A stretch of DNA of 64,000 bases from Ignisphaera sp. (GCA_038821645.1 JAWBDT010000006.1:1-64000); one strand, 5' to 3'; shown: positions 32,840 to 35,653, counted from the first letter of the stretch. The notes: generated by a model from the sequence alone, not told the origin. Made by a program: numbers and translations.

Positions 32840-33126
32840 AACCCTATGTCATGTATTTAGCCTATACCTTATAAAAAGCTAAACAAAATTAAGAATTTGA
32901 TCAAAGATCATCAATGTTAAGCAGATTGTACAGAATATTGATGTAGGTAAAAAATGATAATTTATGTTCAATTCCCTGGCTATACTTCTCAGCTAACTTA
33001 ATCCAAGTAGTGCTGGATCTATGCCTAAGCTTTGGGCAAGTGCTTTGTACTCATCAAGAGACATGACTACTACTTGGTGCCTCGCGCAACTGTTTCGGGT
33101 TTCTTATAGGTTTATATTGGGTGATT

Positions 33127-33285
33127 TTATTCTTCTGCTATGATTAGCACATATACTTCTTTTCCGTGGAGGTGCTTGATCTTTTCTTTGTCTTTCCCCA
33201 GTGGGTAGAGTACTGGTGCACCGTATCTGTACCTTATAACACTACACTTAACGAAGTAGAACTTATCAGCCAATCTATCACCCAT
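33127..33285 (-). CDS. Small 52-aa transposon-associated protein (AbrB/DUF2080-like), not in the ORF track
   Basis: MGDRLADKFYFVKCSVIRYRYGAPVLYPLGKDKEKIKHLHGKEVYVLIIAEE; GGTGA RBS before alternative TTG at 33273; TATA at 33307-33313. Confidence 0.6.
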   Translation of the reverse strand: MGDRLADKFYFVKCSVIRYRYGAPVLYPLGKDKEKIKHLHGKEVYVLIIAEE

Positions 33286-33350
33286 AAGTAAAACTGATAG
33301 AAAGCCTTATAAACCCTTATGTCTATGCTGAGTAGTGGTGGAGCTTCTCG

Positions 33351-34574
33351 ATGAGGGAGGAAGAGCTTGTTGAAACACTTAAGATGAAGGCTCTCCCCAA
33401 GGGTAGTGATGATCGTGATGCTCTGGTTGAGTTTCTGAAGCTCTATCGTGATGCTCTTCAACTAGTAGTAAACAGGTTGTGGAGTTTAAACAAGGTGTCT
33501 TCAATTAAAACTCTGCACAGAATGTTCTACAATGAGCTGAGAAAGCATGGTTTTAGAGCACACCACGTAAAGCAGATCTACGTCTACGCTAAAGCAGTTG
33601 CTAGAGCTAGTAAGCAGAACGGTGGTAGAAAACCGGTTCTAAGGAGATTGACAGCTAGGATAGACAAGTACGACTATAAGCTGGATCTAGAGAGTAGAAC
33701 GCTTATCCTAAAGATACATGAAAACAGAGAGGTTAAGCTAAGACTATTGACATCTAATGAAAGAGTAGAGAAGTTTAGGGGTTGGAGTAACTATGAGCTA
33801 GCTGTGAAGGTTGTTGAAGACGAGGTCTATGTAGCAGTATACTTTAGGAAAACAGTTGAACCAAGAGAAACTAGAACCGTTATGACTGTTGACGTGAACT
33901 TCGACAATATTACGCTAGCTGTGTTTACACCTAGTGGAGAGTTGTTGAAGCTGAAGCGATTCAAGACACTACTCAGAAAGATACTGACGCACAGGATATG
34001 GATCGAGAAGATTCAGAGAAAGTACTCAAAGTCATGGAGATTCATCAGAAGTGTTAGAAGAGTGATTAAAAGACATGGAGAGAGAATAAGGAGTATTGCT
34101 TGGGACTATGCTCACAAGATTGGAGACTCTATAGCGGAACTTGCTAGTAGGTATAGCTCTATCATAGTCTTAGAGAACTTGAATAAACTCAGGAGTAACG
34201 TGAATAGAGGTAGCAATTTCAACAAGAAGCTATCCCTGTGGTTCTATAGAAAGATGCAGTTCACTATAAGCTACGAGGCTTTAGAAAGAGGACTAGAGAC
34301 TAGATACGTCAACCCAGTAAAGACATCATCAACTTGTCCAAGATGTGGAAACAAACTCGAGAGCAACGGTAATAGAGTAATGCGATGCACTAGATGTGGA
34401 TTCATAGGAGATAGAGACGTGATTGCATGCATAAACTTATTTCTAAGGTACTCAAGATGTGGGGGTCTAGGGGTACCCCTAAACGCCCCCAAGCCCGATG
34501 AAAACCCGAGCGGAATGCGGGGGAACAGAGATGAGGCAATGAAATCAACCAATATAAACCTACATCAGAGCTGA
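33351..34574 (+). CDS. tnpB: TnpB RNA-guided nuclease
   Basis: RuvC D (VDVNF), E (LENL) and D (DRD); zinc finger CPRC/CTRC. Confidence 0.95.
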   Translation: MREEELVETLKMKALPKGSDDRDALVEFLKLYRDALQLVVNRLWSLNKVSSIKTLHRMFYNELRKHGFRAHHVKQIYVYAKAVARASKQNGGRKPVLRRLTARIDKYDYKLDLESRTLILKIHENREVKLRLLTSNERVEKFRGWSNYELAVKVVEDEVYVAVYFRKTVEPRETRTVMTVDVNFDNITLAVFTPSGELLKLKRFKTLLRKILTHRIWIEKIQRKYSKSWRFIRSVRRVIKRHGERIRSIAWDYAHKIGDSIAELASRYSSIIVLENLNKLRSNVNRGSNFNKKLSLWFYRKMQFTISYEALERGLETRYVNPVKTSSTCPRCGNKLESNGNRVMRCTRCGFIGDRDVIACINLFLRYSRCGGLGVPLNAPKPDENPSGMRGNRDEAMKSTNINLHQS

Positions 34575-34595
34575 ACCCCGCTATAGCTCAAATGG
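34455..34595 (+). ncRNA. Putative TnpB omega RNA (reRNA) overlapping the tnpB 3' end
   Basis: GC-rich hairpin GGGGGTC-TAGGGGTACCCCTA-AACGCCCCC at 34461-34490; position typical of TnpB omega RNAs; boundaries inferred. Confidence 0.6.
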
Positions 34596-35653
34596 TTCTA
34601 ATAGCTAGAGCTCTTCACTTTAATGCAAAACTCATAGCTTTTGATGAACCTACATCAGCTCTAGGACCTGTTGAAGTTGAAAAACTTCTGAACATCATGG
34701 TTAAACTGAAGAACGTAGGCATATCTATGATATTCGTTAGTCATAAAATAGAGGAGGTCATGAAAGTAGCAGATCGAATATATGTTATGAGAGATGGCCA
34801 TATAGTTGCAGAATTCACTAGAGATTCATTCAATTTGAATGAGATTATAAGAGCTATGATAGCTAGAGAAATAAAGGAATTCTTCCCAAAAGAAGAGATA
34901 AGTATAGGTCCTTCAATTCTAGAGGTTAAAAACTTGTCAGATAGCTATGGTTTCATAAAGAATGTGTCTTTTACTGTTCGAAAAGGAGAAATTTTAGGAA
35001 TTTATGGAATTGTTGGTTCTGGTAGAAGTGAAATGATATTGACGTTGCTGGGCTATAGGCCCAGAAGTGAAGGAGAGATTTATATAGATGGTAGAAGAGT
35101 AGAAATAAATAAGCCTTCTGATGCATTTATGTATTGTTTAGCATATCTCCCCGAAGACTGGAGGCTTTCTCTAGTGTACCTAATGTCGGTAAAAGATAAC
35201 ATAACTCTTCCAATAATAAATAAAATGAAACGTGTAGAGATTGGGTTAATATCGCCAATAAAGTTATCTGAAGAACTAGAGATAGCACATAACTATATCG
35301 AGAAACTGAAGATAACTCCGCGAGATCCCTTCAGAAGAGCAATGTTCTTGAGCGGTGGTAATAGACAAAAGGTTGCATTAGCTAAACTATTGGCATCAAA
35401 TGCAAAAGTATTGATACTTGATGAGCCAACACATGGTGTAGATGTAGGAACTAAAGTAGAGATTAGAAAACTCATTGTGGAATTGGCTAAAGAGGGAAAA
35501 GGAATAGTGTTAATATCATCAGAACTTCCAGAGATAACAAATATGTGTGATAGAGTTCTTGTAATGAAGAGAGGTACTATTGTAGCTCAATTCGAACGCA
35601 AAGAAGTTTCAGAAGATAAAATAGTTAAGGCAGCTGTATTGGAGAGTGCTTAG
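34577..35653 (+). pseudogene. 5'-truncated two-NBD sugar ABC transporter ATPase (RbsA/MglA-like)
   Basis: Begins inside NBD1 (PAIAQMVLIARAL...FDEPT) without the first Walker A; NBD2 LSGGNRQK/LDEPT intact. Confidence 0.8.

Follow-up and report, generated by a model that had tools for sequence, protein, structure and literature searches.

The window (the whole stretch of 64,000 nt analysed here, from Ignisphaera sp.) carries a mobile element of ∼1501 bp (33079..34579, plus strand), whose extent was taken from the alignment of its copies and from contig break points. From left to right the element consists of a left end, a small gene, a divergent promoter region, tnpB, an omega-RNA region and a right end. 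The small gene (33127..33285, minus strand) has 52 codons, with ATG at 33285-33283 and the stop codon TAA at 33129-33127; the start of the element at 33079 is 48 nt outward of this stop. The tnpB gene (33351..34574, plus strand) encodes an RNA-guided endonuclease of 407 aa that matches NCBIfam NF040570 (104.8 bits, cut-off 100) and Pfam PF07282 (E 8e-17). Residues D181, E275 and D356 (G-D-R-D) are invariant in an alignment of 47 sequences, as are the zinc-ribbon cysteines C329, C332, C346 and C349.

Close to its termini the element has an imperfect inverted repeat of 38 nt. The left arm (33094..33131) is 79% complementary to the right arm (34538..34575), which overlaps the last tnpB codons and the tnpB stop codon; judging from general knowledge of TnpB elements, the right arm is presumably located within the scaffold of the guide (omega) RNA, in its 3′ part. 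An earlier interpretation of this locus made from the sequence alone (hereafter the sequence-only reading) had reported a minus-strand ORF, 33285-33127, ending exactly at the left inverted repeat. The ORF is indeed present, and its stop codon overlaps the inner end of the left arm.

A whole-assembly DNA search found three full copies of the element in the same genome, one in the window (contig C6), one at C5:22857-24358 (90% nucleotide identity) and one on contig C10 (78%), as well as element fragments on contigs C20 and C8. At the start of contig C8 (C8:22-212) an element remnant has been scrambled, with an inverted right-end fragment separated by 16 nt from a 47-nt left-end fragment of opposite sense. 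Among related loci, 29 left and 24 right ends have sharp borders, with flanks that all differ. Many hot-spring metagenome contigs diverge precisely at 33079 and 34579, and their depth is far higher inside the element than outside.

Shorter derivatives were observed as well. MITE-like joints in metagenome contigs (33107->34449/34470) connect ∼30 nt from the start of the left end with the final ∼110-130 nt of the element and contain neither gene. Derivatives with internal deletions (e.g. loci L021, L031 and L109) have kept both ends together with the small gene and the promoter and have lost nearly all of tnpB; L041 is also among the loci with miniature derivatives. In the window, the element interrupts a gene for a two-domain ABC-transporter ATPase (34580-35653, plus strand) within the first domain; past 34579 the frame of this gene picks up again at once. 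The 5′ third of this gene was found neither in the left flank (32840-33078) nor beside any other copy of the element in the assembly; therefore, either a deletion or rearrangement came after the insertion, or the truncation of the gene predates it.

In distant subgroups, an equivalent inverted repeat with another sequence is present at the same position. Comparison with 200 shuffles per locus in nine such loci placed the repeat above all shuffles in four loci and level with the best shuffle in two, while in three loci it failed. The terminal 57-60 nt of the element folded into hairpins no better than those of shuffled sequences on either strand (z from −0.15 to +0.97, a weak test made with 37 °C parameters); thus hairpins of the Y1-transposase type were not seen there. 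No conserved bases were visible by eye outside the left end among 29 copies, and a target-adjacent motif (TAM) could be concealed in the first conserved bases, GCCT. The RNA fold of the 3′ end of tnpB was uninformative (z = −0.32). A search of Rfam revealed no omega-RNA family, its sole match being a chance one to a miRNA (E 0.23). No terminator-like T-run follows the stop codon of the small gene, and a scan for sigma-70 promoters and terminators, a model not applicable to archaea, produced nothing above shuffles.

TnpB-only elements of the IS1341-like type have no terminal inverted repeats, carry subterminal hairpins at both ends and insert beside a conserved short target, the TAM. The element described here has the TnpB of this type, its RuvC triad and zinc ribbon being intact; the combination of absent terminal inverted repeats, subterminal hairpins and conserved target was not found in it.

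The divergent intergenic region (33286..33350) is 65 nt long and contains the box TTATAAA at 33307-33313. There are 21 nt between the box and the ATG of the small ORF, and 37 nt between the box and the tnpB ATG (33351); the sequence-only reading gave the same box, and its distances of 22 and 38 nt are the same ones counted as steps. Inspection by eye of 26 related intergenic regions revealed in most of them a purine-rich stretch followed by a box of the (A/C)TTATAA(A/G) type, and in most of them GGTGA ahead of the tnpB start. The purine-rich stretch and the box can be read as BRE and TATA elements of a putative promoter facing tnpB. Conservation across the 26 regions agrees with the earlier claim that the small gene lies at a divergent, putative promoter region. 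No operator-like repeat common to all subgroups was seen by eye in the intergenic region.

The start codon of the small gene is ambiguous at the sequence level: either ATG 33285 or TTG 33273, the latter preceded by GGTGAT and leading to a product of 48 aa, may be used. An in-frame start codon is situated 2-9 nt after GGTG[AG], a plausible ribosome-binding motif, in 96 of 110 loci (63 ATG, 21 GTG and 12 TTG); the products from these starts have 47 aa (75 loci), 48 aa (16 loci) or 49 aa (5 loci). The sister copy on C5 has TTA at the codon matching TTG 33273, which makes the 52-aa ATG start also plausible. Between this ATG and the middle of the TATA-like box there are ∼25 nt, a distance that a leaderless mRNA would fit.

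Several comparisons demonstrate that the ORF at 33285-33127 is a real protein-coding gene under purifying selection. None of the three copies in its own genome has a disrupted frame. The C5 copy encodes an identical small protein, while its TnpB is 84% identical to that of the window, a weak comparison since the DNA of the small-gene stretch hardly differs between the two copies; the C10 copy has several differences in the 3′ half of the small gene, and the last 28 residues are unchanged. Start codon, stop codon and full C-terminus are present in 31 of 36 genome copies (three from the own genome and 33 from genome contigs). The other five have an early stop (L038 and L040), are cut by a contig end (L037) or have no start that we could find (L039 and L041). 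Among metagenome loci the frame is open in 79 of 80, and nearly all of the products end in ...I-I-A-E-E.

The substitution pattern is that of a coding sequence. For 30 distinct 42-codon cores, drawn from 32 copies with full C-terminus, pN/pS was 0.21 (pS 0.50, pN 0.10), the entropy sums at codon positions 1, 2 and 3 were 11.3, 11.4 and 33.5, and each of the five other frames had stop codons in 29-30 of the 30 cores. A larger set, of 86 distinct cores of 27 codons taken from both genome and metagenome loci, had pN/pS of 0.28. Taking both core sets, synonymous divergence was 0.50-0.53 versus 0.10-0.15 for non-synonymous divergence, and the entropy at codon position 3 was 2-3 times that at positions 1 and 2. 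The open frames and the pN/pS values of 0.21-0.28 go far beyond what chance would produce; the ORF picked out by the sequence-only reading is conserved in related elements. In the only RNA library with related contigs, these contigs, which are no measure of transcription, had low depth over 33088-33207 and no cover of 33226-33367.

The neighbourhood of the small gene was compiled in two collections. Genome contigs of 185,579 species yielded 33 small-gene loci, carried by about a dozen Thermoproteota MAGs and by MAGs labelled Bathyarchaeia and Nezhaarchaeota. Every genome locus with enough upstream DNA, except L038 and L039, had a divergent tnpB or a remnant of it. Metagenome contigs contained 282 relatives, of which 80 were kept for counts: 54 loci with full divergent tnpB, nine with tnpB cut by the contig end, seven with remnants only, four with no tnpB despite at least 1300 nt of flank and six with no flank. 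The family profile matched 20 of 401 genomes of the phylum, in 14 of 161 genera.

A third subgroup, with Y-P-P replacing Y-P-L, was seen among 18 weaker-scoring genome loci. A divergent tnpB, recognised with a TnpB profile built in this analysis and only distantly related to that of the window, is present in 16 of the 18. Among the weaker loci, L180 has a tnpA-tnpB pair of another type, and L174 and L175 have none.

In the reverse direction, the small gene is located beside 11 of 11 full-length TnpBs of the clade (defined by model start ≤13 and E ≤1e-60) in five other genomes; complete genomes of the genus (G203) have three copies. Weaker or partial TnpB matches in these five genomes, which probably belong to other clades, have no small gene alongside. 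Protein identities to the small protein and to the TnpB of the window are correlated (r = 0.92 for 60 loci, which are related and not independent). The co-occurrence with tnpB that the sequence-only reading proposed to check is seen from either gene. The small gene and tnpB are a fixed two-gene module in one clade of Thermoproteota TnpB elements; the elements with this module have near-terminal inverted repeats and are usually without tnpA, and the small gene is kept intact almost wherever this element of hot-spring archaea occurs.

The gene for Y1 transposase, tnpA (PF01797), was found neither in the own assembly, which is 97.8% complete, nor anywhere else in the seven genomes of the genus, the own genome counted among them; PF01797 is present in five of 61 genomes of the order. 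Assemblies and MAGs often lose repeats and plasmids, so that a tnpA acting in trans may merely be unassembled. Y1 tnpA was detected in two of 113 related loci (L102 and L103, probably the same sequence), there in a separate neighbouring element.

According to the sequence-only reading, the small gene occupies the place of tnpA. This became doubtful in view of a distant homologue in one genome (G221, C1:705583-706400; L080/L180), which has 106 aa and is encoded 90 nt from, and divergent to, a Y1 tnpA that is followed by a tnpB. The tnpB of this pair (446 aa) is of another TnpB type than that of the window. The first ∼50 residues of the homologue make up the family domain and the rest is a helical tail. 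Given this arrangement, the small gene may add to tnpA and not replace it. An ORF of 167 aa, of no known family, begins 4 nt after the stop codon of the homologue.

The small protein of the window is basic (pI 9.1, net charge +3), and pI is between 8.0 and 10.0 in 37 of 38 family members; the C-terminal end is acidic and invariant, mostly ...AEE. Neither the protein of the window nor any of the 38 members had a match in Pfam or NCBIfam at E ≤10. A HMMER profile search against 1.84 billion representatives matched 23 clusters, all of 29-75 aa and with no fused long form among them. The family's own unnamed clusters were the only ones present in the ESM Atlas, and no relatives were detected in phage collections, plasmid collections or IMG/VR contigs. 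In the PDB, the best match of a sequence profile search (a staphylococcal superantigen-like protein, E 0.095) was judged to be due to chance. By these sequence searches the small protein founds a new family without detectable relatives.

AlphaFold2, run with 18 sequences, predicted a strand (8-18), a second strand (24-28), a helix (33-39) and a third strand (42-50), with mean pLDDT of 76.7 and pTM of 0.49; the five models span 51-77. The fold is thus predicted with moderate confidence to be small and beta-rich. Foldseek searches with the monomer model gave no match at E ≤0.001 (best E 1.2 in the PDB and 0.34 in BFVD), and the highest Z in an exhaustive VIA-align comparison with 48,161 chains was 3.5, with no AbrB-type chain at Z ≥2. 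The absence of a fold match here indicates neither novelty nor difference of the fold; a search with a monomer is uninformative for an interdigitated dimer.

The sequence-only reading saw in the C-terminus a resemblance to proteins of the AbrB and DUF2080 type. DUF2080 (PF09853) proteins, named 'putative transposon-encoded protein' or 'DUF2080 family transposase-associated protein', are similarly archaeal, ∼50 aa in length and encoded next to transposase genes. Both families have a C-terminal strand of the G-K/R-x-x-Y-V-I-I-like kind and a similar strand order, with an 8-residue gap. Yet PF09853 (gathering score 21.5 bits) matched none of the 38 members at E ≤10 and nothing in the own genome at E ≤1; as a positive control, it scored over the cut-off in two of 201 genomes of the phylum (three of 201 at E ≤0.01). 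The hhalign probability against DUF2080 was 5.2% over 17-37 columns, the profile being shallow (eight sequences, five of them near-identical). The DUF2080 partner found here is an IS66-family DDE transposase, not tnpB. The true DUF2080 genes of Thermoproteota (L042, L045 and L043, in genomes G169 and G023) were observed in three settings, upstream of the IS66-family transposase, divergent from a 358-aa ORF without significant Pfam match, and after a 233-aa ORF of no known family.

Proteins of the AbrB/MazE/SpoVT family (PF04014) have, by eye, a size, an order of elements (strand-strand-helix-strand) and a basic loop between the first two strands that are similar to those of the predicted model; the fourth strand, however, is absent in the model. 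hhalign against 28 AbrB/MazE domains from 28 loci of the same order gave 4-6%, versus 0.5% for the reversed family, and neither a PF04014 match nor profile homology was found. The positive control of DUF2080 against AbrB reached only 3.5%, showing that the profile-profile test has low power; a common fold is therefore compatible with the data, while family membership is unsupported. Together, the absence of Pfam and NCBIfam matches in the 38 members, the low hhalign values and the lack of a fold match leave the proposed AbrB/DUF2080 kinship unsupported. The likeness is confined to a short C-terminal stretch, G-K-x-V-Y-V-I-I, and to the similar order of elements.

Among published systems, the archaeal pairs of RHH/MazE and TnpB (Altae-Tran et al. 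2023, PNAS, PMC10691335) come closest, to judge from the part of the paper drawn on here; the present clade may be listed in the supplementary tables of that work. In these pairs too a small gene is tightly linked to archaeal tnpB, crenarchaeal lineages included, with a patchy distribution, and restraint of the nuclease or regulation of transcription was proposed as its role. In that part of the paper, however, the partners have a recognisable RHH or AbrB/MazE fold, while the small protein described here matches neither. Their tnpB is downstream of the small gene in the same direction, whereas the two genes are divergent here. TnpB of the RHH/MazE clade (branch RIIIr-4) has His in place of the RuvC-III Asp, whereas D181, E275 and D356 are invariant here. 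The published pairs are described as non-mobile, in contrast to multicopy elements with sharp ends at many insertion sites. The features that mark an RHH/MazE-TnpB pair (His-replaced RuvC-III, lack of mobility, co-directional small gene) are thus not those of the present module.

A second group for comparison is that of the orphan orfB elements of Sulfolobales and their MITE-like derivatives (You et al. 2011, PMC3119797), again as given in the part of the paper used here. These are likewise multicopy, tnpB-only elements of Crenarchaeota without tnpA, and their short derivatives retain the 3′ end of orfB, comparable to the 33107->34449/34470 joints. The orphan orfB elements are described as having one gene and no inverted terminal repeats and as inserting after TTAC; in contrast, the element described here has a second conserved gene and the 38-nt near-terminal inverted repeat, and no left-end flank is conserved in its 29 copies as seen by eye.

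In the full-text, mostly non-subscription literature that was searched, a small gene divergent to tnpB within TnpB-only elements is not described, which is in line with the suggestion of the sequence-only reading that this two-gene TnpB module is possibly undescribed. TnpB elements with a small associated protein are known as such; what appears to be new, from sequence comparison, is this protein family and the divergent pairing.

Cas12 descends from TnpB, which is itself a compact nuclease for genome editing, and TnpB elements are treated as units of one gene (tnpB only) or of two genes (tnpA and tnpB). The transposons described here, supposedly of one gene, really carry two. A second gene that is conserved, under selection and strictly linked points to an unrecognised component acting on TnpB elements across an archaeal clade; it might regulate them, inhibit them or bind their ends. 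In each case such a component would be of use, with thermostable TnpB editors gaining a natural brake or helper, and it may give a clue to the persistence and spread of elements without tnpA. It also shows a systematic neglect of the small genes that insertion sequences carry: neither Pfam nor NCBIfam has a model for the family, and public MAG records name close homologues only 'hypothetical protein'.

As to function, the sequence-only reading proposed a regulator or accessory cargo. The part of this proposal that stands is that the small gene is a genuine second gene conserved together with tnpB; the term 'cargo' is doubtful, as the gene behaves as a core part of the element. We tentatively prefer, at somewhat below even chance, the reading that the small protein is a nucleic-acid-binding regulator of the divergent promoter, of the terminal repeats or of both. 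A small, probably oligomeric, nucleic-acid-binding protein would be made from the divergent promoter and would bind element DNA, either at the shared promoter region or at the repeat present at both ends. Binding would set the expression level of tnpB and omega-RNA and, through it, the activity of the element and its cost to the host. We favour this reading because of the location at the divergent promoter, the stop codon abutting a repeat of both ends that co-varies between subgroups, the basic charge, the small, predicted beta-rich fold and the published precedent of small DNA-binding proteins paired with archaeal TnpB; basic charge and position are generic and weak arguments. Counting against it, the searches above recognised no DNA-binding fold or family, the predicted model is of moderate confidence, and the intergenic region showed no operator-like repeat common to the subgroups. 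The deletion derivatives L021, L031 and L109, in which the small gene, the promoter and both ends outlast tnpB, are a further hint of regulation.

The same derivatives, with an intact small gene and no tnpB, argue against a direct partner of TnpB, and so do the four metagenome loci (of 80) without tnpB within at least 1300 nt. Such a partner, either an inhibitor (an antitoxin-like brake) or a factor of assembly or loading, would bind the nuclease or the ribonucleoprotein and not DNA. Very tight linkage to tnpB and co-divergence with it speak for this possibility, and a hypothesis based on co-folding has been published for RHH-TnpB in one archaeal TnpB clade (PMC10691335, as far as the part used here goes). 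The small size of the protein, its strong conservation and its acidic, invariant C-terminus would also fit a protein-protein contact or a nucleic-acid mimic. The genes are divergent, however, and not in an operon as is usual for toxin-antitoxin pairs; we regard a TnpB partner as the main rival explanation, though a rather doubtful one.

The third possibility, which we consider unlikely, is that the small protein is an accessory of transposition; it would recognise the repeat of both ends, whether in DNA or in some single-stranded intermediate, and would aid synapsis, excision or integration or recruit a transposase acting in trans. This would explain the mobility of an element without tnpA: Y1 tnpA is absent in the own genome and in the seven genomes of the genus, yet the flanks of the element are many and different, and hairpins of the Y1 type were not seen in the terminal 57-60 nt. 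The repeat abuts the stop codon of the gene and recurs with other sequence in distant subgroups, although in three of the nine distant loci it is no better than shuffles. Against this possibility, the 47-aa protein has no catalytic motif, and a tnpA acting in trans may be unassembled; the genome also has an apparent IS607-type element at C5:17177-19124. At this latter site an unrelated TnpB (28% identical to that of the window) is encoded after a 227-aa ORF in the same direction, which by eye has a MerR-like helix-turn-helix and the look of an IS607-type serine recombinase; no small divergent gene was seen there.

Since the left repeat arm is inverted, a transcript of the small gene that read out through the left end would contain almost the same sequence as the final 25-38 nt of the presumed omega-RNA scaffold and would then run on into the left flank. 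It is conceivable, though we would give it a rather low chance, that these are not 'orphan' TnpB elements and make up a distinct, self-contained type of two-gene transposon: the 47-aa protein would read the co-varying end repeats, its read-out transcript would include a copy of the last 25-38 nt of omega-RNA, and together with TnpB it would drive TnpA-independent mobility or homing or else supply a second guide, directed to the left flank. If this were true, the small proteins would form a new accessory class among RNA-guided nuclease systems, and TnpB editors might gain a natural on/off switch.

That the small gene is instead a degenerate tnpA relic (N-terminal strand with the K-Y-R-R motif), open by chance or by constraint on left-end DNA, is highly improbable and was largely rejected: the gene does lie on the element side where IS605-type tnpA lies and has a short likeness (...IKYRR... 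vs ...PKYRR...) to Y1 transposases of the same order, but hhalign gave 2% against five Y1 transposases, the substitution pattern is that of selection on protein and not on DNA, and the distant homologue in L080/L180 coexists with intact tnpA.

In locus L103 (4102-5126 in element orientation) a complete IS605-type unit is located 160 nt past the right end of the small-gene/tnpB element. It consists of Y1 tnpA and a tnpB of a second type, resembling that of G221, and hints that two types of elements insert side by side or share a transposase.
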